From: Psammoneis japonica
Lineage: Eukaryota
DNA: 64,000 nt
Direction: 5' to 3'
NCBI GenBank assembly: GCA_008632985.1
Contig: QPGO01000001.1
Coordinates: 364,600-428,599 of the forward strand
In this document: one piece after another, positions 13,057 to 50,598 of the stretch
How positions within the stretch are numbered: position 1 is the stretch's first letter
How the letters are laid out: each line of letters begins with the position of its first letter
Translations under genes and position numbers: made by a program
Notes under the pieces: model-generated
Database searches by the model: none
Told to the model about the DNA's origin: nothing
The model's input: only the letters and a program-made list of their open reading frames with translations

Positions 13057-13612
13057 CTTGACTGATGAAATGTTTTTCTCGTTTAAAACAATGTTTGTGA
13101 AAATTAACAAACCAAGGTTTGTGTGGCAATGCAACCACGCATTGGCACACGGCAACAAGGTGGAGGCAGAAATGGCGATGTGGATGTGGTGAAAAACAGC
13201 ACACACAATTCTCAACAAGTTGTTGCAATGTTGGCACACCAAACTTGTGACCAGAGGTTGGCCTGTCATCACATGACAATGACATTTTGCAATGTTTTGA
13301 CAAATTGTCATCATGTAAATCTGCACATTTTTAACGCTTCGTGCACTCTGATGAGTGCACTCAAAGAAGCTGCCAGAGGTCAAAGATGACAATGGATCAA
13401 AAGAGATCTCTTGTGCCAGTTTGAAGGGTGAGACTCTCAAGCATTGAATGGAAATTTGAAGCGGAGACTTGGGGGCACTGCGGAGCTTTACAAATCAACA
13501 GCACGGTGTGTGGCGTGTGTGGATCTTTTGTGGGCGGGAATGCTTTTGGAATGAACTGCCGGGTGCGTGCGTGCGGTTCGTGGTCCATCCGCCACCCAAG
13601 TCATAAAAGCAT

Positions 13613-13702: not shown

Positions 13703-14644
13703 CATGGTGTTCGCCAATCCATCGCACGCGCACAACTCGTGTCAAGTGACGTTGCACCCCAACAACAATCACGAGAGAATTCAAACCCACAACGAGAAAC
13801 CGCAACACACAAACGACGACTTGTTGTTGTTGTCGTGACATCACATTACGGGACGGAAGCAAAACACAACAAAACAGTCATATTCACATAAATTGGTACG
13901 TTCATCACAACATGATTGTAAGGAACAATCCGTGTCGTATCGGCGTTGTATCAATCGTCGCGCCATGGTTGTTGTTGTTTTTGGTGGCAAAATGTTGTCG
14001 TTGACACTACTGATAATAACCCGGAAGTCATTTGCGAATTTTGGGTTTGCCGCGCGTCACGTTGTTCCGATTGTGTAGATTTCTACGTGTGTCGTAAGAA
14101 AATGAGAATTTCCAGCTGGCGCGCTGTAAACTTGGTACACATTCTACGTATTGGCGCCAAATTTTGGGTTCTCAACTCCATGCCCAAAAAGACACTCTTC
14201 TTGTCATTGGCATATCCCATCACAACTTGTTTGTTCTGTTGTTGCTGGTCATCGCCGTTGTTGATTCTCCATTGTTGATAACAACGACGCAAGAGGTGTG
14301 TGTATATGATTGTGCAAATTACAGTGTTGCGAGGAGGAGAGGACTCGTTCCGTCGGCGTTCGTTCTGTTTGTTCTGCCGCGTAATGAAATTTGTACTGTT
14401 GTTTTGGTCATGCCGTTGCTGTTGCTTGTCTGTGGAGACAAGAGATATATGTTGTGTGTATGATTGAATACAGCAGAGTAGCAGCGAACGGACTAGAAGC
14501 TCGAGAGTGTTGCGGCACCGTCAGCAGAAGTCGTATTCGTTCTGTTGTTTATGTTGAAAGGTTTTTGTTCTTTTTGTTCTTAGCTGCGTACTCACCTCGT
14601 ATTGCTTTTCCAGTCCTTATACAGAATCTCAATACAACTACACC

Positions 14645-16469: not shown

Positions 16470-16599
16470 ATAATAACAACAATAGATTGTGTTGTACCCG
16501 AGTTGTTTACACACATTGTGGATACTACTCTATTGTGTTGTTCCTCTGTTATTTTATAAGAGTCTGTGCCTTTTTATTCTCTTGACAGTTGTGCTATGC

Positions 16600-19500
16600 A
16601 CTCTCGCAGTGAAGTTGTCCCAACCTCCACCAGCACATGTTGTGTTCAATCACAAAGGGAAGAGATGAATTGACATGCATTGTTGCCATTGATTGTGCAG
16701 CCTTTTGCCCACACCAATGTTGGAAGTTTTGTGATTCATTCATGGTGGTTTGCAGTTTTCACAACCAGTTTCCTTGGTCCCGCAGGCATGGAACTTTTCT
16801 CATTGTTTGAGATCTTGCTTGTTGTGTTTTCTAAATCACAGTGCACCTCAACAAAGACACCAGTTGATGGACAAACAATTTACAAACCTCTGGATGAGAC
16901 ATTTCCCAACATGTGCAGTCGACAACCATGGAACTTTGGCACCAGCAGCAGCAGTCTCCGGGAACACAACAGGGCAAGGAGTTCAAGGGCAAATTGTGTG
17001 TCAAGCTGTGGGAAAAAGCCACAGAGTGTGGGCATCATGTCATGCAAAATTGACACAGGCACACCAAGTGTTTCTTGGTTTGCGCAACTTTGAACATCTC
17101 ATTTGCTCTGAGCAGATGAGCAAAGCTGATGCCATTTCTTTTTTGCATTGCTGTGAGCTTCTCTTGGCCTTGTCTGCAGCATGCCTCTCATTTGCAGTGC
17201 AATCTTGCACCACAAACTGTCATTGAGTGGATGGCAGTTTGGACCCAGCAAAATCGCCTGATTTTGGCAAATGGAGAATCCCAAAATCTGGGTTGCTTTG
17301 AATGGGTTAGACAGCCACCACTTCCTGGTTGCTTGAGGTTCACACATCATCATCACCCCGTGCATTGCAAATGAAGCTGCGCGTGTCATGGCAATGATGT
17401 GGCATTTTTAATGGCATCCCACGCAACACTCAGAACAACAAAAAACACCACATCTCCAACCATGGAGCGCAATCGTTTGTAGATCAATGGCCGCAACAGT
17501 GCCTGCGGATCACCAACCACAATTGTGTCCCCCAAAGCCATGTTGTCACTGCGACACGTCTCGTGCTGTTCACAGTCCAAGGTCAGGAAATGCCACAATG
17601 GAAGGAGAGCAGTGATTTTGTGGAGTCACGAGAGGCCCAAATTCTGAGATGTCACAATTGCCAATGGCAGGAAATGATGAGATTGATGAGGATCCATGAA
17701 AAACCAGCCCCATCTTGGCGTTGAAGGCCACGATGATGAGCTGCAGGTGTGCAAATGGCTCATCTGTGCACTTTTCACCAAGCAACTTCATGGCATGTTT
17801 CTGCCAGCAATGCACATTTTGTGGCTTGGTCTCTTGCAACCACCACTGCAATTGAGACACCAAGCATCAAAAACAAGTGACTCTGACTCTGGCAGGAGTG
17901 TTGGGCATTGAAAAGCAATGGTCATGAATTTGCATGCACCAATGTGAGCCGACCAATCAATTGAGGCAACCTGCAACAAATGCACACTGCAAAAGGCACG
18001 CTGCAGTGTGTCTGATTCCCTGGGAATTGACTGGATGATGTTCGTGAGTTTGTTTTTCCAGGGATGTGTTGGAAGTGTCGGCAGTGTCCAGCACACATGG
18101 ACGACCTTCAGCTTGGATGTTTGGAGGAGAGAAAACTGCAAGAGGCACCCCAGAGGAACAAAAATGATCGGCTTGGTCAATTGATTTGATCGTGACACAT
18201 TTGATGGGTTCTTCAACTTGTTGAACATTTTTTGTTCATTCAAGGCAACCTTAAAAAATGAGGGCTTGGCAGAAGTTGAGACACATTTGCTCTCATTGAT
18301 GCAGAGAGGACTGCTCATGGTGTGTTTGTTGGGTTGATCAAAGGCAGGTCACCACGGCGCAGCTCAGCCCATCAAAAATGTCAGCGCACATTGATGGAGG
18401 AGCTGGTCTTCACCATGCTGAGCACAGACTCTGTCATCTTCAAAAGTGGCACACATTGATCCATCCAGACTTGACCCCCAACGCCATCTCTGTTTGAAAC
18501 AAACTCCCTGGACTCCATGGTTTCTTGTTGCTGGCAGTTTTGTGGAGTGGACTTTTCAATTGAAAACGAGCTTTCATTCACATTGAGTGGACAGTGGCAA
18601 GTCAGTCCTTGAAGAGGAAAAAACAAGTGTGAAGTGCAAGGAGACAAGTTCCCTTTGCAGTTTCTTCAAGCAAAATGCCGCCACTCCTGTCTTAAGACAT
18701 TTTGCCAGCTGCTGAAAGCTGAGTCCAGCTTGCTCCACCACCATGCTGGTCAAGTGGCCTGTTTGGACTGCAGCCCTTCTTCCTCAGGGTGAGATGCACT
18801 GGGCAATCCACAAACTCACCAACCCTCCACATTTCTTGCTTCACTCTTGTCAGCAAGTCACTTTTGTTGTGGGCCGCATCGTTGCAGTGTTTTCATGCTT
18901 GTGGAGGTGTCCAAGTCACCCCACCCAATTTCTTTGCCACTCTTTGCCAAGACAACATTCTTTCCTCCAAAGAAGCTTGCTGGCTTTGCTCCCATTTGTT
19001 CAGCACTTCACCCAATTGTGATCAGCTGGGTGTCACACTGGTGCATTTTTCTGTCACTTTGGTGGGGTTTTGCACAATTTTGCAGAGCAATTGTTGGGTG
19101 ATCCACTCTGCAGCTTCTAACATTTTTGTGCAAAGCAGCTCTTCAATGCCCTCTGAGGGTGCACTCGGCTCCCATCGCAGGTGTGATGATGTGCTGTGTT
19201 CCAGACTCTGGGCAGGATTTTGTTTTGCACAGTTTTCCAGAATTCTGTGCACAAGCTCTGCAGCTTGCACTCTGGTTGATGCACGTGCCAGTCTTTGATG
19301 TTTGAAGTTAAGTGGTGACCAAGTTTGCACCTGCCCTGCACCACTCCAGAAATGCTGGGGAATTGTGCTGCATGAAAAATGTTGAAAGTTGCAGAGTGGA
19401 TGGCCAAACAGCTTCACAGCCCCCAACAGCATGAGGCCTCACACCTTGAGCCAGGAATGTTTCGTGAACCTTCAAAATCTTTGAGCTTCAAGAAGTGTGG

Positions 19501-21340
19501 CTGCACAGCAAGCTCCTTGGCTGCAACCAGACAACAAATGAAAGTGAGGTGTTGTTTCAGCCTCTTGTGCAAGTGACGCGTTCCAGGTCTAGGTGGGACC
19601 TCACACCGCACAGCTGAACTGTGACATCGACAGTTTTTTGAATCGCGTCGCATGTCGCGCACGCACATTTCTACGTGATTTTGGCGAAATTTTGTGTCAT
19701 TTTATGATGCAATTGTCAGGCGATCCATTCAACAACTTTCAATGTTTTTTTCTCTGCGCCATTCTCGAGTGTCTCAAGGGGGACCGCCAACCTGTTTTTT
19801 CCACGTTCATCCTAAAATTGGCAATGTGTTTGAGTGCGCTTGTTTGCAATCATTGACTTTAAATGCAAGAATTGTTCGATCGCCCATGAGAACATCAGCC
19901 ACCGCGATCAAAGCACGACGATGATGGCAATTGCGCTGTCTCTCAAAATTGGCCCAGTGGCACGAGGGACGAAAGCATGCAAATCAATCTGAACTGCATG
20001 ACGACAACAAAACCAATGAGCATCCCTCGTGAGGTGACACTTTGCAACTCACCGCTCATCGCGAACATCATCATTGTCGCTCGTGCTTTTGTCATGTCAT
20101 TTTCTGTCGCGACCCGTCAAAAATGCGTAAAAACCCGGAAAAGACGTGCGAAAAAAACAAGCTGACGGCCCACCTTGTGAATGGCACAGGGCAGGCGCAT
20201 CATTCAAAACTTCGAGTGCTGACAGAGACATGTGCACTGCAAACTTGGCCGTTTGTTTTTTGTCGAAGACAAACACATCCATTAACCAGAGTGCGAACTG
20301 CAGAGCTCGCACGCAGAATTCTGCGGGGCAAATGTCACAAAAAGTCCCACCTGGGACTGGAACCCGTCAAGTTTGTTCCCAAGCTTGTGACCACTCAAAG
20401 CCAGAAGCTCAGAAATGGACAAAAAAATGACTGGTGCACCTCAGGCCTGATCTGCGATCCATTGCCTGAGACACCAGCAGAAAATTGCATTTGGTGCAAC
20501 AAACTTCTTCAATTTTGATTGCTTCAAAATTATGAAAAAATGAGTGTGCATAAAAACACAAAACTTTGTGTGCACTCACCACCCAATTTTGGAAAAAATC
20601 AAAATTGAGGGAGTTCATGGTGCCAGGTGCAAAAAGGGTCAGCAAGGAAGAAGAAGATCATGCACAGCTGTGCACAACAACACCCGGAACTGGAGCTGGC
20701 CATGACTGTGGCACACAACACAAAGAGCACATTTCATTCAATGCTCAACTCCGCAGCTCACATGACTCAATGAACTGGGTTGCTTTTGCCTTCTTGGTGT
20801 GCACCACTTTCAACAGCAGCTGCTCGGAAGTGCTTGTTTTTGTGTCTCAGGCCACAACAGGAATCTTTCGAAAATGACCCATGATGCAAAAAGCACAAAA
20901 TGGTTGTGGGCGCCTGTGGAATCGCACGTTTTTGTGCTGAAGCTGTCACAATGTTTGCACAATTTGTGCAAAAACAGACTTGACTGTCATCGGGTCAGGT
21001 GCATTTTTGCAGTGTGTGGAAGAAAAATGCACCTGATCAGAAAATGGTCAAGTCCATTTTTCGCAAAGTTAAAATTCACTGAGGACAGACAGACAGACTT
21101 TTGACAATTGTCTTGGTGCTGTTCTGCACACTTTTGCGCAAATGACTCTGCAGCGCGAAAGATTGCTGTTGGAGTGTGCTGTGCTTTTGTCTGGTTTGTC
21201 AAGCCATGGCTCCTGATGAACATGCACATTTGATCAACTTGAAGTTTTGCAACAACAACAACAACAACAACAACAAGCAGAAGAGAGGCAATCATCAACC
21301 TCGCTGGTCGCTGGCCAATTCATCAACAAAAAAAGCGTGC
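16600..21340. other. TpA-depleted decayed repeat block between the two RSH genes
   Basis: TA nearly absent; CG also scarce outside 19575-20368. No recognisable protein. Confidence 0.5.
19575..20368. mobile_element. Non-autonomous DNA transposon, 25-bp imperfect TIRs, 4-bp TSD AAGT (Sola-like TSD length)
   Basis: GACGCGTTCCAGGTCTAGGTGGGAC versus reverse complement of 20344-20368 GACGGGTTCCAGTCCCAGGTGGGAC (21/25). AAGT at 19571-19574 and 20369-20372. Confidence 0.7.
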
Positions 21341-21769
21341 GAAACTTTCTCTGATAGAATATTTTGACGTCACGATGATGAGAATTCATTGTCATTTCGA
21401 CGTAAGCAGAATTCGGGAATGACGTCGACATGAGAACCGCACTTTCATTCTGCGAATAGTGAGTGCTTGAGTTTGCAAAAACAAGATCAATGACAGTGCA
21501 AAATGACAGAACGAATTGGGGAAAAAATGCCCGAAACGAGGACACACTGACACATGCTTGACACACTCCAGTCCCGTGCTCACGCGCTTCCGCGACCGGC
21601 AAGTGATTTCTAGTTCTTTCAATACTAAGTTTATGGCGCGGGATTGGAAAAAAGCGCGGGCTAGTCGCGTGTCATACCGATTCCACGGTGAAGTAACGCG
21701 TGAAAAGAATTCTGCTGCACATAAATGTTCATAAACCAGATGGTCATTGTTCTCATAAAACAAAACAAC

Positions 21770-22733
21770 ATGACACCAACAAGAAGAAATGCCGCTTTGC
21801 TCTTTGTTGCGTCCCTTTTGGGCTTGACGCAAACCGCTGATGGCTTTGTAATATCTACAGAATCAACAGCATTCTCGAGGATACCCTTTGATTCTTCTCC
21901 AGAGACAATTCTCGCTCCTTCGTCTCCGTTTGACGTGCTTTCGACTACAAAAACAACGCCCAATGACGATGATCACACTCGCAGTAAATTGATGCAATCG
22001 CTCTACGAACTCAAGAGTGGGCAATCGTCGAGACAACAGCAACGTCAAGCACTCTACAGAGATGCACTTGTGGCGTCTCGCTTGGGTATGCCTCAAGTGA
22101 AAAAGGAATTGGAACGCACCGCCTTTAAGCTCTTGTACCGTCGTCAGTACAATAAGGTAACAAAACAACAAGATCAATCAAGAGCATCCATGGATCATGC
22201 TTTATCGACAATTACACGAGAGGTTCGTGACTTGTTGAGAAACAGTCCAGAATTACAACAGGTTGCCGATAGCGTTTCGGTTACGGCGCGCGTCAAGGAA
22301 CCCTACTCGCTATGGAGAAAAATGCTCAAAACGCGAGTCAAGAGCGTGTCGGACGTTGCCGATGCACTGCCTTGAGGATTGTTGTGGATTCTAAAAAACA
22401 ACAGTCGACGACGAGCTCTGTTATGTGGTTCAAGATTTGATGATGCGCAAATTTTCCCATATCCACTCCTTCAAGGATTATATTGCCAATCCGAAACCCA
22501 ACGGCTATCAAAGTTTGCATTATACGTTTAACACGGATGTCGATAACCGCAATTGGACTTGTGAAGTACAAGTGCGCTCGGAAGAAATGCATCGGGTTGC
22601 CGAACAAGGTTCTGCTGCACATTGGAAGTACAAGTCGCAAGACGTGCCGACGCTAGCAACGGATTCAGCAACTGTCCTTGCCAATCGCATTCGCGTACGA
22701 AATGCATTGCGAGAAATACCCGTCAAGCCATGA
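21770..22733 (+). CDS. RSH: Short synthetase-only RelA/SpoT paralogue with plastid-type leader (apparent frameshifts near 22368 and 22400)
   Basis: Signal peptide ending ADG-FV; ASRLGM, ARVKEPYSLWRKM, DALALRIV, FKDYIANPKPNGYQSLH, EVQVRSEEMH..AEQGSAAHWKYK. No HD or TGS region. Confidence 0.8.
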
Positions 22734-23169
22734 CTAGCTACAAATAAAAGTACAATAGCCATCCTTTTTTTAGGCCTCTTTTTGTTAGGACATTAGACTT
22801 CAGCTCTTCTACAAAGAACCACAGAGACCCCGTTGTTCGATCCAATTACTCTCCCTTTACAGGTGCTTTTGGAATCTCTATCAATGCCCTACCCACTCAC
22901 ACAGTCCAGTGAAGCATCATATCTTACATTTTATTTTGCCAACCCACCTACCTTCTCGCTGATGACAATGAAAGTATTGCGTTGCCATTCCCGATTTAAA
23001 GTTCAGGTTGAACTTTGGCGTTTTTGTCTCCAAAACGCAGAGTGGCTTCCAGTCGTCCGACCCATTGCGTTGGAACATGCCTTTTTTTGCTGGACCGGTT
23101 TTTGGAGAAGACCAGCGGATGTGTTGAAATGCCTACGAGGAAGCAGACACTCCCATTAAAATTGAAAAT

Positions 23170-25550
23170 GAGGTGGAAAACCACTTTGTCTTGGTGGAAA
23201 AATGTGGGTCAATGGCAAGAGAATGAAGCCACTGTGTCAACAAGAACATCTTGTTGGGAACCCCATGCCCATCCTTCCAAATGCTTCAAAGAGCAACAAA
23301 GAAAGCAAACCAGGCAGGAAGAGAAGCAAATCAAAAGACAGTTCCAGTGGCCCACATGGGGAGACTCTAAAATGACAGTGTGCATGTTTTGAGGGCAAGC
23401 CCAAAGCGCGACCCATGATTCAGCATGCCCTCATGACAGCAACTTCCAACAGCCATCGTAGTTCCGTTGCCACTTGATGACACTGAGGACCCAAAACAGT
23501 TGCCATGCTGTTGTGTCAAGAGAGTTTGCCCACGTTGATTCCATGTTGAAGTGTCCTGGTCAAGATCATAAACCGAGAGCGTCTCTGTGTCATTTCAAAA
23601 TGCACCCACGGCCATGATGATCAAACCACTGTTGTCAAGAGAAACAGAAAAACCAAACAAACCATGTGACTTGCCCTTTGGTTGGATCACCCAACGCATC
23701 CAACTTGACAATGTTGAGCTGCACTCAAAAACCAACACACAGCCATTTTCACTTTCAGGCAAATTCACACATGCTCCAATGGCAACTGTGGCTCCCGATT
23801 AACTCAAGAAGACCAAAATCCAAACTTGTCCCTTGCAGCTTGACCAATGGAAGTTCAGCTGAGCCAGTTCCAAATTGAAGTGGTGCAATTGAGTTGAAAC
23901 CAAACAGAACCAGAGTCAGGACGGAAAGAAAAGCCAAGTCTGTCATTGGGTTCTTGTCCTCCAAGGTCTCAGCCAAGTTGCAGCTGACAGCCCAGTGCCT
24001 TGTCACACTCACATGCTCAAACTTGGCTGGTGTTTGTTCTGCCAGCAACGTCACTTTCAATGTGATGATGAGCAACGGCCCAGTGCTCTGACAACACATG
24101 TGACAGTCTTGCTTGGGTTGCAGGCCATTTACGTTTTTCAACAAATTGTTCTTTTGGGCAGTTTTGGGTGTCAAAAAATGTGCCCCCAGACCAACACACA
24201 CTTTTTGCATGCCACTGCGCCTCTTGAGGCACCACAAATTTTGACACAAAGCAAGTGACATGTTCAAATGTGTGTGAGTGGCTCTCTGCACAAACAAGAC
24301 CCCTGTGTGCAAAACAAAACCAACAGATTGCTGCTTTGTGCACCCCAACACAGTGGCTTGTCATTGGCTGGAGACTTGTGATTGACTTTTTGTTGCTCTA
24401 CATTGTCACATGATGGGTGTGTGTTTTTGACTTGTGCAGTCAAAAAGTGGCAGGCAAAAATTGAACATTTCAGCTTTTTTCCGTGAAGAACCGACTTCAA
24501 AGCACAACAAACATCTTCATGATGTGACATCAACTGCGAGCTGTTGAAATGTGTCAGTGTCATGGTGAGCTTGTGGTTGTTGTTGGAGCATGTTGTGTTC
24601 ATGATGGCCAATGTTTTTTTTGTTTTGACTGTTTGCAATGGAAAACATGAAATGTCCAATGTCCCTGTTTGCAGGCATGCAATTGCATGTGAGTTCTTGC
24701 TTCATGTTTCATGGTTCGTTTCATGTTTTGTTGGGTCACTGGTCACAGCTTGTGCCCAGATGGCCTGGACCTGCAGCAAACAGCATTGTGTCTTGATGTG
24801 AGTTCTTGGACAGTGTGCCATTGTTCAGTCACAGCATCCAGCTCTGTTCTCCCAGCGGGAGGTTCTTGGAGCTGACCAGGGACAATGGGAGATTTTTTTG
24901 TGAGCCTCTCTGCGCATTTTTCACATGCACAATGTTGTGGTTGGACATGCACTTGTGCTGATTGTTGAGTGCAGTGTGGAGAATTTTTGTCTGCAAACTG
25001 AAATTGTGCTTGCCACCAGCAAAAAAAAATCAACATTTGGCAAAAAAGGTGTGCGCATGCCTCGTTTCTCTTTGAGTTGTCACCATCATCTTTTGTGCTG
25101 CCGCTCTTGCTTGCACCTTTGTTGCTTCAGTTGTCAACTTCTTTGCAGTGGCAAACACCACAAAGAGAGAGCTCATCAAGGACAGCATTGTTGTCATGCC
25201 ACCCATGCTGCCCTTTGCATTGAGAGGAGAACGCTGCGAGGGATGCTCTGCACAGCTGTTTTGCCCTTTTTTGGCTGTCTTGTCAAGAGGTGGCACTGCT
25301 TCTGGCTGATGGATGCTCTGTTGACGACTTCAATGTTTCACAGTGTGTGCATGCTGTGTGACATTTGGTGCATGGAAAAAAAATCAAAAATCCAGTGCCA
25401 ACTTTGTGGCTGTGCAAATTGAGAAAATCCTGGAGAGAGGTGCTTGTGCTTGCCGGCACTGCACTGTGAAAGTGTGGGGATCTCACATCAGTTGTTGGCA
25501 ATCAGTGTCATTTGGCAACTGTGGCAAGATGGGACACCCCAAGCAGCAAT
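23170..25550. other. TpA- and CpG-poor decayed repeat block
   Basis: Composition only; no identifiable protein. Confidence 0.45.
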
Positions 25551-25898
25551 GAAAGCCACAGTAAGAAAATAGAGAAGAGCTCTGCATGCAACTGCTGTCA
25601 ACGCTGTTAGTGCGTGCTTTCGAGTCCCGGCCGTTTGTCCTTTGCCAGAGTCACGCGCATGCACGCCGCTGCGCTCTGAGCGGGTTGTGACGTGTTTTGG
25701 CGGTGACATCATCATCGGTGGGTTTGTCTTCAATTCGATCAAACATTCGACAGAATTCTTGAGCTGAAACGTGCATCATTCATCGTTCGCCCTATCCTCT
25801 TTTTATTGCTATTGCTTGCTGCATTGAACGTTGAACGTATTCCGCTTCCACCTCGGTAACTTACAAACAACTCCCCCATCTAGAGTGATGTTTCATGA

Positions 25899-27428
25899 AT
25901 GAAGGAAACGTCCCCCTCAATCGCGCTTACAACGTACAACGCCATGGACAGCCGAAAAAGCAAAGCTGGCTTCAAACAACAGAGCACCGTCGAGACTGCT
26001 TCTGAGGAAGGCAGCGAAAGCGACTGGTCCTTTATGAACGAATCTCCCAATGATCATAATTATCATGCGGGTGGTCGTGAACTGCTGCAACTCGTCATGG
26101 TGGCTGCCGCGACGGCGGCAACACTGGGCTGTGATGTGGGCATCATGGCGGCTGCCATTCAGCCGTTAGAACGCGAAATGAATCTCACGGGGTTTCAAAA
26201 AGAACTTGCCATGGGATCGCTGAATTTTGTCGCTGCCGCAGGAGCACTTTGGGGTGGAGCCGTGGCGGATCGAAAAGGGCGGAAAGCGACGATAAAGTTG
26301 TGCGCCTGGGTCTTTATCGTCGGGACGCTGTGTATGGCGTGTGCTCCCAACTATGGCTTGCTACTGCTCGGCAGAATTGTCACTGGACTTGGTGTGGGAG
26401 TCAGTTTCATTGCAGCACCCGTGTTTATATCAGAAGTGGCTCCCACTGAACGAAGGGGACAGCTCAACACCATCTTTGATGTCGCCATAAATGGAGGAAT
26501 CCTGTTTGGCTACGTCGTCGGGTTTCTGGTGCAAGTCACGCCCTTTATTCCGGATTATTACAAGTGGAGAATCATGTTGGGGTTGGGATTAATTCTGCCA
26601 GCGATTGTTTTGTTGTGTCTTGCGATGCTGCCAGAATCTCCTCGGTGGCTCATGATGGTACATCAGAAGCCTGCAGCTATCCAAGTCATGAAAAGACTAG
26701 GGAATTCAGAAGACGAAATCAACGAAACCATAAACGCGATTGAGAATGAAATGCAGGCGCAACAGCAAGTCCAACAACAACGGCGAGAACACCATGAACC
26801 ATGGTGGCGGTTATCCTTTGGAGGATGGCTCGCGATCAAGCTTGGTTTCTGGCAGCAAGTTACTGGTGCAGAAGCTGTGCTATGTTACAGTGCCGACTTT
26901 TTGGCCCAAGCAGGCTTGGTGTCTCCGGCCAAGCGTTTGCTAGGCAATGTCTTTGTTGGCGTCTGTAAACTTGTACCTGAGCTGATTGCAATGAAAGTAG
27001 TGGATGGGATTGGGCGAAAACCGCTCATCTTTGGATCCGCAGTCGCGCTCACGACTACCACGGGTGCTTTGGCGTCCGCTTTTTGGTTGAATCTGTCACC
27101 GTACGTAGTTGTTGCACTCTTGTGCTCTGTAATGGCGTCATTTTCGGCGGGTTTGGGACCATTTACCTTTTTGGTGGTTTCGGAAAACCTGGATACCCAA
27201 GAACGAGCGTGGGGCATGACACTTGGTGCAGCTGCGAACCGATGCACATCGGGCACGGTTGCGTTGACTGCCGTGTCACTTTCAGGTCTCTTGGGGGTCG
27301 GTGGCTTCTTTGCCTTTTATGCCTTTATAGGCCTCGTCTCGCTGCCTTTCTACTATTGGCTCCCTGAAACGGCTGGAGTAAGCCTTGAGGAGCTTTCAGC
27401 AGCTAGATCACGCGGTCAGGGTCATTGA
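25899..27428 (+). CDS. MFS sugar porter family transporter
   Basis: DRKGRK, GRIVTGLGVG, PVFISEVAPTERRG, PESPRWL, WQQVTG, DGIGRK, LPETAG. The C-terminus may extend to ~27495 via a frameshift. Confidence 0.92.
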   Translation: MKETSPSIALTTYNAMDSRKSKAGFKQQSTVETASEEGSESDWSFMNESPNDHNYHAGGRELLQLVMVAAATAATLGCDVGIMAAAIQPLEREMNLTGFQKELAMGSLNFVAAAGALWGGAVADRKGRKATIKLCAWVFIVGTLCMACAPNYGLLLLGRIVTGLGVGVSFIAAPVFISEVAPTERRGQLNTIFDVAINGGILFGYVVGFLVQVTPFIPDYYKWRIMLGLGLILPAIVLLCLAMLPESPRWLMMVHQKPAAIQVMKRLGNSEDEINETINAIENEMQAQQQVQQQRREHHEPWWRLSFGGWLAIKLGFWQQVTGAEAVLCYSADFLAQAGLVSPAKRLLGNVFVGVCKLVPELIAMKVVDGIGRKPLIFGSAVALTTTTGALASAFWLNLSPYVVVALLCSVMASFSAGLGPFTFLVVSENLDTQERAWGMTLGAAANRCTSGTVALTAVSLSGLLGVGGFFAFYAFIGLVSLPFYYWLPETAGVSLEELSAARSRGQGH

Positions 27429-27879
27429 GGCGCAGTCATCCTCACAAATGGTCGAACTCATGGACGATGAAATGCCCGAGTGGCAAACTAGCTAGAATTG
27501 ATGTCGAAGCTGCTGTAACAATGCACATGTATGAACCAAGGCAGTTGATCGACCTGCCAGGAGCAATGTATTTTGCCAGCGCACTTTGCATCTTCCATTC
27601 CGGATTCACCATTAGAGGTGGCATCTACGCATTCTTCTCGTCACCTCGCGCATCGAGTCTCTCGTCGACGATCCAAGGCAGAGAGAACCACTCAAAAAGG
27701 TACCAGACGGTCGTTGGTTTTGTACATTCTTGATCATCATCAGCAACATCAAATGAATTGCAGAGGCTTGACCATTGTCCTACGGCCATTGCTGTTGACG
27801 AGCTTGTACGGTGCCGCAATCCTGAAGTTCTCGATGGGGCTAACAAATGCAAGGTTTTTGCCAAGTACAGGAGGAGAAC

Positions 27880-30800
27880 AATGGCACCAATGACAGCATT
27901 TCTGCTTGACCTCTCTCTTGCGTGATTTGCTTCATGTCCATTTTTGAATGCTCTAAAATTGCAAATGTGCAGAGTGGCATGTGCATCATGCATCCAAAGA
28001 ATCTCAACTCTCTGCAGCTTAGAGATTGCACATGGCATGAGCCATCTTCATCCCAGTCCATTTGGTTCCCTTTTGGCATGCACCAGAAGACTCAAGTGTC
28101 CCCATCGTTGTGACAGGCAGTCTGCTGCCATGTGCTGACAAAGCCAGGAGCAGCACCAGAGCTGCAAGGTCTTGCCCAGAGATGAGCTGGAGCGCATCAC
28201 CCTTCACGGCACAGAGGCAGCACCGGAGGCTCCATCTGCCACAATGGACAATTTGTGGGCAAAATCTAGACCCAAAGAAGTGGCCACTTTTCATTGCTGG
28301 CTGTGCCACTTGGTCTGCAGTTCCAGCTGCAAGCACAGCCACTTGGGTGCAGAGTTCTCACAACCATGATAGAGTCTTTCTTGTCATTTGTGTGAGTCTT
28401 CCTTTTCAAGGCAATCAAGCATTCATTTGCTCCATCAAAGCAAGCACAGAGCAGCGCAGTTTTTGACCAAGAAAAAATTCTGGCAATCAACACAATGATG
28501 ACAGCCTGCTGCCACACACAACAGCACAGATTGCCCACTTGCTTGCTCAAGCAATGCCAGCTGGTGCTTTGCTGAGAACTGTCAGGAATGGTGGTGCCAG
28601 CAAAGTTTGGCTGTGGTTTTTCTTGCCTGTCTTGCTGCTCTGCTGCTGTTCTCTTTTTTCCACAGGGGGGCGGCTCTGGCCAGCAAGCTCATGTCCCATG
28701 TGGTCTGCCCAGCTGAGCAAGCAATCAGCATCCTTTGCTTGGACCTCACTTCCCACTGAGTGGCTGCTGCCCACTGCCATCAGCACCATTGCTGATGCTG
28801 TTGTGACCTTGCATTGCCACACAAGCAGCCCTGCTCTCAAACCTGATGTGAGTGTGAGTGCCACAGCTGGCAGCTGGCAGCTGCACAGTTGACCTCTCTG
28901 ACAGATGGTTGGCTGCTCATTTTCTTGCATTTGTCTTGGCATGTCCTTTGTCCCATTGCTGTGTGTCATTTTTGCACAACTTGCAGCACCTTGCACTGCT
29001 CAGGTTCAAGCAAAAAAAAAGGCTCAAGCAGAGTGCATGTAGTGGCTCTAGACTTGCTCATTGTTTTCAAATCAGCAGGAACAAACAATTTTTCATGTTG
29101 TGCAAATGACTCAGCTCTGCTTCCTCGGGATGGCCTGGCTGCAACTCAAAGATTGTTGCTGAAAGCTGCTCCCACTGTGCTTTTTCATGCATCTGCATGG
29201 ACAAAAATGCATGTGATGGCTTCCAAGCTGAACTGCCTGGGGCCTCTTTTTTCTGGGTGCTGAGGAGGTGTGTGTTTTGTGCTTCTGCAGCAACAGTGCT
29301 TCCCTTCCATCTGGGTGAAAGAGAGCACAACTTCTTGACATTCATCTTTTGCTTGCTGCTGCTCTCATGGCCATTTTGCTGAGGATTTTCTCAGTTGTTG
29401 TTGTTTGCTGTTTTTGATCTGAGCAAAGTTGTCAAACTTGTGGCAGCTCAAAAATCATTGGCACCCATTGCCAATGGTGTTGGTTGTTTCTGAGTGGGGT
29501 GTTGGTTGTTTCTGAGTGCCTCTTTTGGATGCACAGCCCCGTTTGCTGACCTGCACTCTCTAAATGGGGGCAAGCTGTCAACTTGATGAACAATTCCTTG
29601 TTTTGGCACTTTCTCAAAGAATGTCAACCAAAACTGCTGCAACCTGATGTTCCTTCAATCACCACTCTTGGCAAGAACAGTTGGTCCTCCATCATGTGAG
29701 GCTGCAATGTGTCTCTTGTGACCCGCTGAGAGCCAACTGGTGCAGCCTTGGAGGCTCTCATTGTCCCTCTGCTTGGCTCCAAGCACAGCACTGGTGGGGT
29801 TGGCAACAACCATTGTCATCTTGCAATGACCTTCTTTGAAAAAAACTCAAAGTGTGCTCCTTGGTTGCCTGCCTGCCTGCCTTGGGGAGAGTGCAGTGGG
29901 CTCATTTTTGACTTTGCTCTCAAAGCCCAACATTGGTTGAGTTTTGTTCTTCATCAACTTGGGGAGCACCTCTTCCAGAGCAAGGAACAAGCCTTGATGA
30001 GGCTGTTTTTGCAGGTCCAGGTTCTGCACCACACTCCATCTTGAACTCAACCTCAAGTTGCTTGTTGACAGGAGCATCAGTCTTCTTGTTGCAAGCCTGG
30101 CTCTGATCTTGGCCTGGAATGCCTGTGGCTCCCCCACCTCTGAACATCAAGATGACCTCAGAGAGCCATGGGCTTGCTCCCTGGTGAGACTGAGAGTGGA
30201 TCCTCCAAGGAAGGGGGCACCACTCAATGCTGTGGATCCAAAATCCCTGTTGAAAGGGTTTGGCTGCCCCTGAAAGCTGGCGCGTGTGGATTGTTGGCAT
30301 GTTCGCTGGCTGTGGCAACCCTGAAAACATGCACAGAACATGACAACCAACAGTGATGGACGTGCTCATGAAAAAAATGGTGAATTCAAAAATCTCATGG
30401 AAAATGAACTCTGCTGTGGATCATGTTGCAAATCACAGAGCCAGGGGCTTTGGCAACACACTGTCAACCCACATTGGGCACGGGGAGGCAGAGCAAGCAG
30501 GAGCTGCTTCAACAATGTCAGCCATGGGGAGAGGCCACAATGGTGCCATCAACAGCAGTCACATGCTGCAGGTGGTGCAAAAGCACAGCATTGTGCCTGC
30601 CAGCCAGGCAGGCTGACATTGCATTGTTTGTGATGCAGCCCTGCAGCACAAAAAAGGTGTGTCCATGACACAAGGAAATCAGATGTTGCGACAGGGATCT
30701 TCATCAACAAAGGAAAACACAAGTTTCAAAAAAGCATTTTATAAAGGCTGGACATCTGCACTGTTCAAAATGACCACATCAAACAAATCTGCAGCTGGAT

Positions 30801-33090
30801 GTCATCATTGTTCAAATTCAAAATTAAAAACTTCAGCAACAAACATTTCCAGCACCTGCAAACAGCAACCATGAAAGATTTGAAAACTGCCAAGGACACA
30901 TCTCCAATGGAGCTGCAACCAACAGACAAATCAACTTTTTGATCGAACATTGGACATGAAGCATGAACAACCAGAGTGCTGTGCCGGGGGCAGACTTGGT
31001 CATCCTTCAGGACCCCCAAACCATCATGGCCAGAATGACACAGACAATGAATCGGCTGGATGCCACAGACAAGAGAAACAATCAAAATTGATGCTGCAAG
31101 GTTTGCTTTAAGATGCAGAATGGCAAACTGAGCAGGCTAAGGAGGACAAAGACATTGAAGAGGCAAGTGCTGTGTGCCACATGTGTGTCTTGCATTGTCG
31201 TTTCCTTTGACAACAAGAGCGGCACATGGCTCTCTCATTGTTGCAAATGTCATTCACAGGCAACCAAGAAAGCAGGGGCAACATTGATGCAGATGGCACA
31301 GGAAAAGAAAAGATTTGCACTGGGCAAGGCTTTGACAGGAATGAAGGAAGAATGAGCGGTGGATGTTTGTTCAGCAATCAAAGATGAGTGCCAGCACAGA
31401 CAGCAGCATGGAGGATTGCTCAACGTTGTTCACCAAGAACTCTTCAAAGTGTGCCCTGCAGAGTCTGAGTGTGAGGATCAATGTGATTGTGTGAAGAGCA
31501 ACAAGAAATGGCACAGTCAAAGGCATGTGGTGTCAGCTGAAAAGAGTGGTTGTGACGGCAGTGCAATGGTGTGTGTGGTGTTGCAAAAAACAAAATGGTG
31601 AGGCTGACAATCTCTCATTTGAGCCAGGTGGTTCTTGGGGAAAACAGCAGGGGGCTGCAAATCTGACACATTTGCGACATGATGTCATGCTGTCATGCAC
31701 AAGAAAACTGACATTGCAGAATGATGTCATGGGATGGCATTGCATGGTCATGCAAAAAGAAAATCTGACATTGCAGAATGATGCCACAGAAACACAGGTC
31801 AAGTGACATGCCTCAACATGGAGACACTTGAGATGGTGCAAATGGGGTGGGAAACCCTCAAGTTGCGGCATGACCACTCGACATGTGGCAGTGGAGGGGT
31901 GCAAGGGCAGGACATGTTGAGGGTAAAAAGGGTCCACCAAGATGGGCCCAACTTGGGGGGATGCATTTTCTGTGGAGTCAGCTCCTTGGTGCCTCCACAG
32001 GGAAAGCCAGAGTCTTCAAGGCTTCTGCGTGGCACTTTGCAGTGGCTTCACAATCAAAAGCTTGCTTGGAAGAGAGCAGGCATGACAACAGTGGTGGTTG
32101 ATGCCCCCTCATTTGCAGCACCAGGCTTGTGGCCACTGCCCCCCTTGTTCCTTCTTCCTGAGGAACCTCTCCCCTGGCCTCAGCTGGAACTTCTGCCCAG
32201 TTCTCTTCCACTCATGTTGGGCAGGAGGCAAAGTGACAAGAAGGTCTCACCCTTTGTGAGGTGGCTCTCTCTTTTTTTTTGTGACTTTGCAACTCTCAGC
32301 CAGCAGGCTGAGCCTCTCTTTTAGATCTGTTGAAGCCATTTCCTCCTTTCAGCAGCTGGTTCTTCTTGTGAGCTGCTTCAGCCCTCTGTAAGTGGGTCGG
32401 ATGCTTGGCAGGAAATGAACAATGGATTGCATGTGACTTGTCCCCATGAGTTAAAAGAGATTGATGGCTGCTTCCAGGCAGCTTGCACATGCTTCGCATG
32501 GAGTGCATCAGTGTCAACACATGCACTCTGATCTTGGACAAGTCACTGTCAGATGTTGATGTCTGAGCTTTTCGGTCACTGAAAAAGATTGATTTGCCAA
32601 ATGAAAATGTCTGCAAACAATGTCAGCATGATAAGATGGAAAAAAATTGTGTGGCAGAATGGCTGAATTGAACACACCACCTTCAGATTTTGGTTTAGAT
32701 GGGTGTGGGTTGGAGCACAGCACATTGCCTCCATTGTGAGGAAGCACCACAAAGCTTTGCAACAATGTGGCAGCCAACACAGAAGATGTGTGGTTGATGA
32801 AGAGGTCTGGCAGTCAACCCCAAGGAGCCCAAAGACAAGCTGCAGGTGTGTCAGTGCAGCACCTCATCAGTCATGCGCTTTCCCCATTTTGGCTTGGTTT
32901 GAGCCCTTGTGCAAAGAAGGCACTGCAAATTGCAAGGTTGGCAAAATGTGTGCCTTGCCCACCAATGAAGCCATGCCAAGCACCAAATTTTGTTTTCTCT
33001 TGATGCTGTGGAAGCTTTGCACCTGTCAAAGAAAGATGAGATGCAGCTGCACTGCTCAGTTGATGGAAGAAGAAAAGGAAGAGCTCAAAA
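27880..33090. other. Heavily decayed repeat block lacking TpA and CpG
   Basis: Extreme TG/CA excess; no identifiable protein. Confidence 0.5.
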
Positions 33091-33227
33091 AACCGTAAAA
33101 TCATTCACAAGTCCAAGGCAGTCTAGAGCATAGGACCTCCCCAGAGAGGTTCCTTCAGCGCAATCTAAACGAACTTGTCAGATTTCTAATGGTCTTTATC
33201 ACCTTCTAGTTCCTCTCCTGTCAGCTG

Positions 33228-34516
33228 TCAGTCAGTTGATCGAGCGGTAAGAATGCAAGCCAGCACAATCAAAACTCCACCGAGCATTCCTTCCCAGCTG
33301 AGAACTTCTCCCAATGTCAAATAGGCAAAGAGAGACCCAAACACACCGATCGATGTCATGATCAGTGTGAGTTCGGTGGCTGTTACGGCTGTCAATGCCA
33401 CAGTTTCCATGTACAGTGCCAGTGCGGTCGATATCAGCCCTGTCCAGAGTAAATCTGTCACCAACAAACTGTTTGAGAGCCACTGTTGTAGCAATGCAAT
33501 GCTTGAACTGTCGAATAGTAGCCAATAAAATATCGATCCTGCAGCAATGCCCCAGAGTTGAAAGACCGTTACTACATCACTCTTGTCTGGAAAACGAGCA
33601 GAGATGCTCTCCAGTCGCCAATACCCAATACCAAACATTAAGGCTTGTCCGAGACAAAACAAGAGTCCCACCGGCGAATCCGAGGAGACTGCGACCGCTG
33701 AAGTTTCGGTGGTGCCGAGGATTAAGGAAGTTGCGGTATGTCCCCATTCCAACAACGCCATACCACCAACTGCCATTCCAATAGAGGTAACAGTAGAAGG
33801 CTTGAGATCTTTCTTCTTGAACAAACAATCCAGAACGGGAACCACAACAACAGCCAAAGCGTTGAGAAATGCACTCTTTCCCGCATCCACTGACTGCAAA
33901 CCGTACGCCTGGCAAAGGTACCCTGCCCAGTACCATGCGCCGGTCTCGGCTCCTCCTATTGCAGCTGAAATATCATTTTGTAGCCAATTCTCCACCATAT
34001 TCGTGCCAACACTCTCGGATTGTTTTCCCTTGTTGTTGTTCTGGCGCACCGCTAGAGTCCCTGCAGTGCACGCAATGGCAGCAATCGTAAACCGCACTGC
34101 GGCGCTCGCGGACAAGGACATGTCTTGCTGCTCCATCAACTTGACCACCGCAAAATTTGTTCCATAGATAGCAGCAGCTATCCAAACCAGTAATCTACCC
34201 TGCCAAACAGAAATCTGATTTGGGGGGTTACGGACAAAATCATCAATCGTACCTTCGCTTGCTACTAGGAAAGATACGTCATTAGTGCTGTTCTGCGTCA
34301 GAGGTATAGTGGCTGTCTTCAAAGGAGCAACAGCCGATCTTCGCTGTTCTTCATGAATAGACAAGAGCCATGATGGCGACACAGCACTCGACTGTTTTCA
34401 TCAAGATGTTGTCGGCCATTTCGGGGGATGAACAACCTGGGCGCAAATGAGTGAACCTTGTAAAACCACGACAAGAACGCCCAAACTGCCAGTGTTTTCT
34501 CAAAAGAGACGCGCAT
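33228..34516 (-). CDS. EamA/DMT family transporter, probably plastid-targeted (frameshift near 34385)
   Basis: IYGTNFAVVK, RFTIAA, QAYGLQSVDAGKSAFL, LFAYLTLGE. Leader MRVSFEKTLAVWAFLSWFYKVHSFAP lies in the adjacent frame. Confidence 0.85.
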
Positions 34517-34959
34517 CTTTTAGTGTTGAGCTGAAGACGAGAAAATGGAGACAGAGGGATCGATTTCTGTTTTATTCTGCAGCTTTCTCACATGCGTTGA
34601 CGATCGAAAGAAAAGCTTTGTTGGCTCGTGAGAATTTGGAAATTTGGATATTTCAGAGTAGGCCTTGGATAGCGGGGTGCGGGGGAGGGGCGCTTTTTCC
34701 CTGTGATCGTGCCACGTAGACTCTACGTAGCATGTGAAGTATGTACACCTGTGGCCCAAGCAAGTAATCGTTCAAAGTGCACATGCGCGCGCGGAGTGCG
34801 GAGCCCCGCTGCAGGGGGGCGTATTCTTTCAAAAATCGCCCCGACATGTCCAAAGGCCTGTTGAGAGTGAGCGCGCTGGCACCCGGGAAAAGGCACCGGG
34901 GAGAAGCGCTTTGGCCCATTGTCATAACACACAATGAGCTCTGCCATTTAAGACTTGAC

Positions 34960-40100
<5,141 letters not shown>

Positions 40101-40487
40101 GGCACTGCTGGCTAGAGTGGAGCTGGCATTAGCCACCAGAGTAGAGAGCAGCTGCACTCTCCACTAGAGAGTAGAGCAGTGGCTGTGCTGCTACAGCAGC
40201 TCTCTTGGCAGCTAGTAGAGCTGCTTCTCTAGCTCTGCCTAGCTAGAGTGGCCATCTAGCAGCTCCACGTTCGCCCGAGAACAGCACACATGGCCAAACG
40301 ACATAATTCCTTCTGTGATGTGTTGAGCCGCTGTGATGATGTGCGTTTTGCGGAGTTTCATTGCAGACAATACCGTGCTTTCATCTTGGTTATTGTTTTT
40401 TGTTAGGGCTACGTTCCAGTAAAACACACACAAATATTCCAGTCCCGTTGCAATAAAACAGAGATTCCAAAGCAAAAAAAAAAGAAC

Positions 40488-43494: not shown

Positions 43495-46100
43495 TAGAGA
43501 TGGTTAGCAGCGCTCTGCAGAAATTCCTTTTGTTGAAATTTTCCGCAGCCGGCCGGCGCGCGATGATGCGAAAATTTATGTTGCAGCCACGTGTTAGCAA
43601 GCGTGGCAGCGTCAACGCCGCTGCAATTTTCCAGCTGAAAAAGACAAATCTCCAGTACGACGACCACGTACAAAAATCGTGTAGATCGCTCCTCCGACCT
43701 TCGATGCGGGATGCGGCATGAAGCACAACAAACAACACGGACGTGTTGCTGCACGTGTCGTGCCAATACAGTTTTGGATATACTCCATTGCATAAGGTAC
43801 AAACCTGCAATATGATGTATTCTTGTATGCTTGATTGAATGCTGTGAAAGTGTTGTTGTGTCCTGCCATGTTCTTGTCATTCTCATCCCTTTTGCTTGGG
43901 TGTTATTTTGCAGCAAATAGCGTGATGCCGAATGAATTCGTTTTTGCGTTTGTTGGTGATATTTGCAGTGTAGATTCATTAAGCGGAATTAGGGCTTTCT
44001 AGTGACATTACTTTTGTTTTCATACCTTGAGTAGATCCAGATCCGCGGCTACCTGCAACCCCCCACTTGCGACCTTGCGCCCAAATCCCAATGGGTTTTG
44101 CTCAAACAGGCGTTGCTTTAGAACAACTTGGAATTATGACACAATCAATGGCAATAACATCCTCTAGAGATCAAGAGCTTTCTAATGGTGTTAGTTTTGT
44201 TTTCATGCCTTGAGTAGATCCAGATCTGAGGATGCCCGTAACCCCCCACTTGCGACTGTGCGCCCAAATCCCAATGGGTTTTGCTCAAACAGGCGTTGCT
44301 TTAGAACAACTTGGAATTATGACACAATCAATGGCAATAACATCATCTACAGAACAAGAGCTTTTTAATGGTGTTAGTTTTGTTTTCATGCCTTGAATAG
44401 ATCCAGATCTGCGGCTGCCCGTAACCCCGCACATGCCCTTGCACGCCCAAATCCCACAATGCGTTTTGCTCAAGTAGGCGTTGCTTTAGAACAACTCAGA
44501 ATTATGACACAATCAACGGCAATAACATCATCTACAGAACGAAAGCTTTCTAATGGTGTTGTTTTTGTTTTCATACCTTGAGTAGATCCAGATCTGTGGC
44601 TACCCGCAACTGCTAGCTAGCTGGTTTCCGCGCCCAAATCACATGAGTGCATTTTGCTCAGGCAGGCGTTGCTTTAGTATAACTCGGATTTATGACACAA
44701 TCAATAGCAATAACATCATCTACAGATTGAGAGCTTTCTAATGGTGTTAGTTTTGTTTTCATACCTTGAGTAGATCCAGATCTGCGGCTACCCGTAACCC
44801 CGCACATGCCCTTGCGCGCCAAAATCCCAATGCGTTTTGCTCAAGTAGGCGTTGCTTTAGTGTGACTCGGATTTATGACACAATCAATAGCAATAACATC
44901 ATCTACAGAACGAAAGCTTTCTAATGGTGTTATTTTTGTTTTCATACCTTGAGTAGATCCAGATCTGTGGCTACCCGCAACTGCTAGCTAGCTGGTTTCC
45001 GCGCCCAAATCACATGAGTGCATTTTGCTCAGGCAGGCGTTGCTTTAGTATAACTCGGATTTATGACACAATCAATGGCAATAACATCATCTACAGATTG
45101 AGAGCTTTCTAATGGTGTTAGTTTTGTTTTCATACCTTGAGTAGATCCAGATCTGCGGCTACCCGCAACTGCTGTGGCTAGCTGGTTTCCGCGCCAAAAT
45201 CGTAGTGCGTTTTGCTCAGGTGGGCGTTGCTTTAGAATAACTCGGATTTATGACACAATCAATGGCAATAACATCATCTACAGAATGAAAGCTTTCTAAT
45301 GATGATACTTTTATTTCCATACATCTAGCAGATCCGTGTTGTCATCCAGACATCATGCCAACCCCGCATTTGCGCGCCCAAATCCCAGTGCGTTTTGCTC
45401 TAGTGTGCATTGCTTTAGAACTACTTGGAATTATGACACAATCAATAGCAATAAAATCATCTACAGAACGAGAGGTTTCTAATGATGTTAGTTTTGTTTT
45501 CATACATTGAGTAGATCTAGAACTGCGGCTCCTCGCAACTACTCTCTAGCCAGCTGGTTTCCGCACCAAAATCATGGTGCGTTTGCTCAAGTAGCCGTTG
45601 CTTTACAATGACTCGGAATTATGACACAATCAATGGCAATAACAACATCTACAGAATGAGAGCATTCTAAGGAGGTAACTTTTGTTTTCACACCTTGAGC
45701 ATGTCTGAATCAGCGTCGATGCATCCAGTCGTCGGCTGGATCTTGCGCCAAATTCTCCCAGGTATTCAATGAATTGGGCATAACTTCAGAAGCAACAGAA
45801 GTGGAAGTGGAGTTTGATGTATGAGCCATATGATGAGGTTCTGGAGCTTTGTTATCAGCAGTCAACGACTGCGGCGCAGGGAGATAGGATCGATGCGACT
45901 CCAAATTTTTTTTTGCATCGATGCGCTGCTGAAATTTCTGGTTGAAAAAAGCTGAGGCCGAATTTTTTGCAAAAGACCGATGAAATGCGATTATTTTAGC
46001 TTACAATAACAAACTGTCTTCAGAAAAATTTTTGCACCCGGCCGGCGATGCAAATTCTCATTTCTGCAGAGATTTTTACATCGCTTGCTAACCATCCCTG
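43495..46100. mobile_element. hAT-like non-autonomous element enclosing a tandem array
   Basis: Ends TAGAGATGGTTAGCA and (reverse complement) CAGGGATGGTTAGCA resemble Ac termini. Subterminal CTCTGCAGAAAT and GCCGGCCGG are inverted at both ends. No 8-bp TSD visible. Confidence 0.5.
43995..45700. repeat. Tandem array of ~9 units of 183-188 bp
   Basis: Anchor CATACCTTGAG (or variant) at 44021, 44204, 44387, 44572, 44760, 44943, 45131, 45318, 45501, 45689. Confidence 0.95.
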
Positions 46101-46359
46101 CTTTGTGTCGGGTCGGTTGTCGGTCGGTGGGTCGCTACATTTTTCAGATTACTTGTCCGTCTATTTTTTTAATTATTATCCAGCCAAACCAACTCCCGGA
46201 CAAGACATTTTTTTTTTGGCCGATGCGAATTTGGATGTCACCCAACGAGAATTCTGAAGAACAGAACGATGATTTTTGCGAGTTTCAGTGATCGACAGCG
46301 ATTTCTTCACGTAGACTCTAGCATGATTTGCACATAAAAAAACACACAAGTGATTCAAC

Positions 46360-50596: not shown

Positions 50597-50598
50597 TA

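Follow-up and report, generated by a model that had tools for sequence, protein, structure and literature searches.

The window examined here, 64,000 nucleotides of the diatom Psammoneis japonica (positions 364600-428599 of contig C2 in the 91-Mb assembly G000), raises the question of what has removed the dinucleotide TA from long stretches of DNA and which flanking bases decide where the few remaining TAs are kept. Across the window, gene islands with ~40 TA/kb alternate with sharply bounded blocks at 2–9 TA/kb, with the same guanine-cytosine (GC) content in both and a higher frequency of CA and TG in the blocks. In this silent, repeat-rich DNA almost all TA steps have become TG or CA, and one block served as the focus of the analysis:

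27867-33095, no strand assigned: TA-erased focus block (hidden Markov model segmentation and counts), with 18 TA, 33 CG, GC 0.487 and CA+TG 227/kb

At 3.4 TA/kb, compared to the island value, the block has an observed/expected ratio of 0.05 for TpA and 1.81 for CpA. CpG stands at 0.10 of expectation, a feature absent from the initial annotation of this DNA, and by this CpG clock the block is among the oldest; it is old, silent, repeat-bearing DNA.

The initial annotation had proposed that the TAs surviving in 27880-33090 are mainly YTAR (Y, pyrimidine; R, purine), that ATAT, GTAC, ATAC and GTAT are essentially gone, and that a mutator acting on the A of TAY left this residue. The eight positions cited for it are all YTAR within 1–2 bases, and the full set of survivors was as follows:

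27954, 28020, 28267, 28370, 29040, 29049, 29561, 30740, 30742, 30825, 31109, 31138, 31924, 32322, 32389, 32452, 32632 and 32696, no strand assigned: the 18 TAs surviving in the focus block (counts)

Eleven of the 18 (61%) are YTAR (CTAA 3, CTAG 2, TTAA 3, TTAG 3) and seven are exceptions (ATAA 2, GTAA 2, ATAG 1, GTAG 1, TTAT 1), so that the classes divide into 11 YTAR, 6 RTAR, 1 YTAY, and 0 RTAY, with ATAT, GTAC, ATAC, and GTAT all at zero. The expected share of YTAR was 17% with gene-island TAs as the baseline (p = 3.4e-5) and 23% with the flanks of the block's own TA, CA, TG, and CG as the baseline (p = 6.5e-4); the lack of RTAY had p = 0.010. The block at 4760-13603 repeats the pattern (18/34 YTAR, 0 RTAY). 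The observation was thus confirmed.

Using an enlarged sample of four 100-kb tiles from other contigs (161,339 TA-poor bases), 614 TAs were assigned to YTAR (352), RTAR or YTAY (247), and RTAY (15). Survival relative to gene islands in this sample was lowest for RTAY (ATAC 0.006, ATAT 0.007, GTAC 0.011), intermediate for RTAR and YTAY (ATAG 0.024, ATAA 0.058, CTAC 0.074, GTAA 0.119), and highest for YTAR (CTAG 0.154, CTAA 0.298, TTAA 0.570), the last being inflated ratios, since gene islands are an imperfect baseline in which coding DNA avoids TAA and TAG. Composition models fitted on 801 surviving TAs vs 10,588 gene-island TAs gave negative log-likelihoods of -2549.5 (uniform), -2931.0 (R/Y), -3022.3 (four-base), and -3031.7 (saturated). 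Giving each 3' base one rate and adding up both strands therefore comes close to the saturated fit, while the uniform model falls ~480 log units short, and uniform depletion of TA, which would have undone the proposal, is rejected. Every TA presents a target on each of its strands, mutated at a rate set chiefly by the base 3' of the A, so that survival declines in the order YTAR > RTAR = YTAY > RTAY.

Counts of survivors are strand-symmetric, and a site with no TAY on either strand is equally a site with no RTA on either strand, so the case for TAY made from counts alone does not hold. The two rules make opposite predictions for lost sites, TAY turning RTAR into RCAR and YTAY into YTGY. TA-rich transposon copies were aligned with TA-poor copies of the same family (alignment ≥250 nt, reference ≥30 TA/kb, copy ≤75% of the reference, identical flanks); 11 references were tried and nine yielded pairs, and after removal of one duplicate locus and of outcomes besides TA, TG, and CA, 1998 of 2189 observations were retained. 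None of the window's alignments to L032 and L033 passed the pair filter. Across three copia pairs independent of one another, mutation had struck the TAY strand at 125/161 informative sites (125:36, p = 1e-12), with RTAR going to CA 67 times and to TG 14 times and YTAY to TG 58 times and to CA 22 times, and the direction was the same in 9/9 reference families with pairs. When 547 reference sites were each counted a single time ("once-used" sites), the TAY strand was again preferred (197:67): RTAR gave 101 CA and 28 TG with 10 kept, YTAY gave 96 TG and 39 CA with 10 kept, RTAY was divided 83/69 with two kept, and YTAR 40/43 with 26 kept. A purine 5' of the TA on the mutated strand (RTA) is rejected as the rule by this TG/CA direction.

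The alignments also supplied the context-specific A>G signature. Relative to A at +1, rates at once-used sites were 3.5 for C (2.5–5.6), 3.9 for T (2.9–5.6), and 1.3 for G (0.9–1.9), and the fitted Y/R ratio was 3.2 (95% confidence interval 2.6–4.2). The +1 base was the strongest of six flanks tested (twice the log-likelihood difference, 105 vs ≤29), with smaller effects at -3, +2, -2, and -4; an A at -2 or -3 is slightly favored in addition. Another family, young and with 11 copies, agreed: adenines were mutated at 46/185 (+1 Y) vs 11/109 (+1 R; p = 0.002). It is nearly certain, then, that the target is TA and that an A before C or T is mutated ~3× faster. TAY is a preference and not a requirement: mutation of TAR runs roughly three times slower, and YTAR is slow but not immune, as 83/109 ancestral YTAR sites were lost among once-used sites. 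The interpretation in the initial annotation is accordingly supported in part, the preferred 3' pyrimidine having stood and TAY as sole motif having fallen.

Two refinements were dropped. Composition ranks the 3' bases T>C>G>A (2.57, 1.82, 0.93, 0.25), and the order within Y and within R rests on composition and is absent in the alignments. TTTAAA survived in full in composition (44 vs 42) and an A at +2 was slower in the weighted alignment fit, but immunity of TAAA is weak, given 14/67 vs 46/169 at once-used sites.

A YTAR excess could also arise with no target choice at all, through new TAs formed from CA or TG, YTAR-rich ancestors, or a base-calling artefact. Some turnover does occur, and the island baseline inflates YTAR survival as stated above. 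Contigs from run X1, for which the library is not on record and is possibly the assembly's own sample, so that they lend no independent biological support, cover 27196-28629, 28631-30512, and 31587-34503 with 13, 15, and 18 differing letters, respectively. They reproduce the TA-poor sequence, making base-calling error an unlikely source of the TA loss, and none of the differences inside the block restores a TA (26 of the 28 differences listed for the first two contigs). Of the seven TAs that the window has in 27880-30512, three read TG or CA in X1, so residual TAs still vary between alleles. In the family alignments, survivors were mostly aligned to a reference TA (35/41 and 83/104; 80–85%), and residual TAs are mostly old survivors; YTAR makes up only 18 of 147 TAs in a young copia family, and the direction test draws on lost sites, not on survivors. 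Together the direction test, the ancestral residual TAs, and the X1 contigs refute this explanation, which is hardly credible.

The process that removes TA produces transitions only, on both strands, and acts copy by copy. Per strand, A>G occurred at 400/888 T-preceded adenines, compared to 39/1308 after A, 84/1347 after C, and 29/1196 after G (2–6%), a 7- to 19-fold restriction, while transversions at TA (11/888) were at background. In the L101/L127 pair, TpA transitions (A>G/T>C) account for 149/293 differences. The three copia pairs carried TG at 168 and CA at 170 sites, and strand-processive action was set aside, as no strand runs were seen (190/375 adjacent pairs vs 185±10 on shuffling). 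Within a 12-copy family, 60/108 sites that retain TA in some copy have both TG and CA in others, so the copies were mutated independently after insertion. A domain-targeted mutator would have converted nearly every TpA after insertion and over many rounds, A>G on the top strand yielding TpG and the same change on the bottom strand yielding CpA.

Editing by an ADAR-like enzyme at the RNA or cDNA stage of retrotransposition would instead have copies inserting already TA-poor. The assembly does hold two ADAT1/ADAR-type genes, and for some copia families whose open frames are long, every sampled copy is TA-poor. The balance of TG and CA within copies, where the two are interleaved, refutes it as the main route; DNA transposons and non-autonomous repeats are affected as well, and TAG, the best site of ADAR1 in the published work drawn on here (PMC5389660), is slow in this genome. 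It is a very improbable source of the pattern.

A TA-rich (72/kb) copy of a non-autonomous repeat (L047:1500-2540, contig C36) is surrounded by fully TA-erased DNA, which means that fresh insertions into such domains escape immediate mutation. Three sets of copia copies (L166-L180, L102-L110, L121-L130) are 92–98% identical, with ~10 TA/kb, intact CpG, and open frames to ~1900–2200 aa; the conversion of TA to TG or CA makes no stop codons, so such frames stay open, and these TA-poor lineages may have proliferated following previous erasure rounds. In L119, a young copia copy on contig C388, 31 of the first 43 TA sites are lost and then 3 of 105, the loss, on both strands, lying within 1.2 kb at one end of what was sampled; the pattern fits spreading from one side, and recombination with an older copy is also possible.

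Patchy action inside one copy, as in L119, is a point in favor of error-prone repair, whereby methylated repeat patches would be recopied by a low-fidelity polymerase placing G opposite T at WA (W, A or T) motifs; so are the confinement of TA loss to CpG-decaying domains and the presence of C5-methyltransferase domains in the assembly (27 matches). Five of the C5 DNA-methyltransferase domains are near full length with no stops, domains being located on contigs C43, C10, C59, C78, C27, C34, C297, and C301. Polymerase eta, which acts at WA motifs in antibody genes, mutates AA and makes transversions, unlike the process here, in which AA is mutated at 0.03 vs 0.45 for TA and transversions remain at background. 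Strand runs were likewise not seen, and in young copia copies TA is lost but CpG retained. Error-prone repair is already weakened by these results and is quite improbable. As CpG is kept in young copies that lose TA, and CpG loss has little flank bias, CpG loss is read as a separate, slower decay of 5-methylcytosine.

There are signs, with controls pointing both ways, of a weaker second tier: A>G at adenines that have a base other than T before them and a pyrimidine after them. In the TA-poor copies of copia pairs, non-T-preceded A>G was found at 48/992 before Y vs 20/1489 before R (p = 3e-7), with no such bias in the G>A control (10/926 vs 12/1186), and the direction from TA-rich A to TA-poor G outnumbered the reverse (29 vs 10, p = 0.003). 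The index (RAY/RGY)/(RAR/RGR), which is insensitive to strict TpA and CpG transitions, was highest in gene islands (0.816), lower in erased blocks (0.705), and lowest in the focus block (0.578); it correlates with the CpG observed/expected ratio (rho 0.50, n = 68 pieces, p = 1e-5). Against this, TA-rich pairs have a ~1.6-fold bias too (44/533 vs 32/605, p = 0.056; 36/4049 vs 25/4478, p = 0.07), and the bias was 1.3-fold in one of the TA-poor families (p = 0.12). A leak of the enzyme is a slightly favored account of this tier, part of which may be ordinary mutation bias of the genome.

As to the agent, the evidence leans modestly toward a chromatin-targeted DNA adenine deaminase and thus enzymatic adenine deamination. 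The initial annotation took the trinucleotide preference as a sign of an enzyme, which does not follow by itself, since non-enzymatic DNA damage also has sequence contexts. The case for an enzyme stems from the strict T before A, the restriction to transitions, the sharp domain limits, and the mutation-accumulation data of the alga Bigelowiella natans. The proposed enzyme, a zinc-dependent deaminase with the TadA/ADAT fold, would be recruited to silent chromatin and would hydrolytically deaminate deoxyadenosine in T-A to deoxyinosine, which is then copied as G; the enzyme might read T-A-Y as engineered TadA editors do. The deaminase genes found in the assembly encode a dCMP deaminase, one TadA-like and one ADAT2-like protein, RibD, two proteins that we take to be of the guanine-deaminase kind, and the two of ADAT1/ADAR type. 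The TadA-like and ADAT2-like genes are these:

L182: putative TadA-like gene
L184: putative ADAT2-like gene

Judged by motif and not by alignment with published sequences, the ADAT2-like gene appears to carry Asn, as is usual for eukaryotic ADAT2, at the residue associated with activity on DNA. The ADAT1/ADAR-type genes (L187 on contig C40 and L188 on contig C79) are separate and carry the catalytic domain alone in the frames examined; editing of tRNA A37 needs only one gene of this type, which makes the second a candidate. Also on C79, L183 combines a deaminase domain and a 2-oxoglutarate (2OG)-Fe(II) oxygenase domain in one open frame.

Several points weigh against this explanation. Among the deaminase genes of the assembly no dedicated extra one is evident, and those present look like housekeeping genes. 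The sequence data cannot place the lesion on A or on the paired T, and processive strand runs are lacking. With a pyrimidine on each side, an A is weakly stacked and readily flipped out, and the TAY preference may thus stem from the physics of DNA rather than from any family of enzymes. The TA-rich copies serve only as stand-ins for ancestors, no long TA-rich relative of the focus block was found among the loci compared, and the alignments, unlike composition, separate neither T from C nor G from A. Engineered TadA editors, which edit A in any context, are far less strict on the 5' T than the diatom process (PMC10085711). Amphioxus ADAT2 (ADAT2/3), the one animal ADAT2 reported to edit DNA, with a preference for GAA in hairpin loops (PMC10354150), and ADAR1, which prefers TAG on DNA/RNA hybrids (PMC5389660), do deaminate deoxyadenosine but have preferences that misfit the diatom process.

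Were the lesion on thymine, the T of R-T-A would be enzymatically oxidized or modified in silent chromatin (to 5-hydroxymethyluracil [5hmU] or 5-formyluracil), pair with G, and yield T>C; R-T-A is T-A-Y on the opposite strand, so the spectrum would be the same, and T>C and A>G are indistinguishable in such data. Enzymatic 5hmU from TET/JBP proteins is described as marking dinoflagellate transposons (PMC11572971), while the parts of that article drawn on here do not report T>C hypermutation from 5hmU. The assembly had no Tet_JBP match, but no control genome matched either, so absence is not shown. A thymine lesion is rather unlikely. Other or non-enzymatic chemistry confined to chromatin, for instance deamination by reactive nitrogen or a side reaction of a methyltransferase, with the TAY bias arising from base stacking, would accord with the failure to find a dedicated deaminase and with the weak +1 Y bias at non-T adenines, seen even in TA-rich pairs. 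The 7- to 19-fold restriction, near-complete conversion, and sharp borders are hard to obtain without a protein, as is the line-specific on/off behavior described in B. natans (bioRxiv 10.64898/2026.01.13.699255), and such chemistry is unlikely. The adenine deaminase may be carried further, tentatively and with less confidence than the enzyme itself, to a natural adenine base editor in diatoms that is recruited by chromatin, erases transposons with the order TAY > TAR >> VAY > VAR (V, not T), and is shared with B. natans as an old genome defence of the stramenopile-alveolate-rhizarian (SAR) lineage, opposite in polarity to both RIP (repeat-induced point mutation) and APOBEC; the VAY and VAR tiers would then be a slow RAY>RGY drift, deeper in older blocks.

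Elsewhere in the window, host genes with Pfam matches sit in TA-normal islands and have few introns, and the erased blocks contain repeats and transposons:

25899-27428, + strand: sugar transporter gene (PF00083, E = 2e-74), left TA-normal island (control DNA)
33228-34397, - strand: EamA-like transporter gene (PF00892, E = 7e-22), right TA-normal island (control DNA)
30110-31974, no strand assigned: dispersed repeat in the focus block, with at least 10 other genomic copies at 72–87% identity
4760-13603, no strand assigned: TA-erased block, 34 TA (18 YTAR, 0 RTAY), CpG mostly retained
16596-21610, no strand assigned: TA-erased block, 23 TA (12 YTAR, 1 RTAY)
22998-25792, no strand assigned: TA-erased block, 11 TA (4 YTAR, 0 RTAY)
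34950-40112, no strand assigned: TA-erased block, 10 TA (6 YTAR, 0 RTAY)
57858-64000, no strand assigned: TA-erased block, 42 TA (18 YTAR, 0 RTAY)
46132-54814, no strand assigned: partly TA-erased nest of DNA transposons that have terminal inverted repeats, with a DDE_3 frame at 48284-49591 (- strand)

Copies of the dispersed repeat aligned over at least 250 nt are nearly all TA-poor; outside it, parts of the focus block are without assigned origin, and a Pfam search with the four longest open frames of the block gave no match. No RNA data set was listed as carrying the stretch. Families of the transposon nest were a source of reference/mutated pairs. Adjoining the nest is a tandem repeat of ~185-nt units (43986-45744), nine copies of which (44073-45744) were aligned and are 76–88% alike to one copy; they retain 7–14 TA per 185-nt unit and vary at 4/7 TAY vs 1/10 TAR adenines. 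A RelA/SpoT gene lies at 14558-16585, and a related stretch 6.5 kb downstream (22471-22634; 71–89% in two short pieces) is possibly a paralogue. In the assembly, a silicon-transporter profile had 24 matches (best E = 2e-208), including a single 1511-aa open frame with three silicon-transporter domains (C38:226311-230342). Together with the intron-poor genes, these matches identify the genome as a diatom's.

In each of the four sampled tiles 37–47% of the DNA is TA-erased, so the process shapes ~40% of the sampled genome. The flank rule is real and quantifiable, and belongs to a mutator that has hardly been described before and is seen here in a lineage new for it. Its elements (Y/R ~3, a strict 5' T, and possible weak VAY activity) form a fingerprint that a candidate protein must reproduce in vitro; the fingerprint resembles that of laboratory adenine base editors and may help find the cause. 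We know of no established dedicated natural genome-defence enzyme that mutates DNA adenines, and a natural DNA adenine deaminase, if true, would be of interest for genome editing.

Among known systems, RIP of ascomycetes resembles the diatom process in that transposons are degraded by transitions confined to repeats, specific for a dinucleotide, and present on both strands. Its changes are C>T, for the most part at CpA, and they create TpA, whereas the diatom process destroys it; C>T at CA was found at only 24/918 sites here, along with the TpA depletion and CpA excess of the focus block. Nor is a homology trigger apparent: the tandem repeat keeps its TAs, a 98%-identical 11-copy family is mostly intact, and L047 is TA-rich, though all of these may be young. 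ADAR-type traits are lacking, with a +1 G rate of 1.3 vs 3.5–3.9 for C and T and no strand bias. Engineered TadA adenine base editors are described as best at TAY and worst with a 3' purine (PMC10879117), a preference that the diatom process matches (Y/R 3.2), though they are laboratory enzymes aimed by Cas9 and a homologous effector in the diatom is hypothetical.

The closest known system is that of B. natans, the only relevant report among the top-ranked papers of a literature search for a diatom case or a flank rule; none of those papers was on diatoms, most subscription journals being outside the reach of the search. The preprint (bioRxiv 10.64898/2026.01.13.699255) describes TpA hypermutation of integrated DNA of NCLDV (nucleocytoplasmic large DNA viruses) and of virophages, with de novo A>G at TpA only, at a 1000-fold rate, switched on in some lines only; its TpA-poor, CpA+TpG-rich windows are enriched for DDE and reverse transcriptase (RT) domains, and an ADAT2 homologue is proposed as a candidate, where the diatom has one ADAT2-like gene. 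Common to both are A>G/T>C transitions at TpA that give TpG and CpA on both strands within local domains, and in the diatom these are domains of mobile DNA with genes spared. B. natans is a rhizarian alga with a de novo measurement in two viral regions, whereas the targets here are transposons of a diatom. The main text of the preprint gives no flank rule (its supplementary mutation table, Table S2 with 231 de novo mutations, may bear on it), and the rule obtained here makes it possible to test directly whether one process is at work in both the diatom and Bigelowiella.

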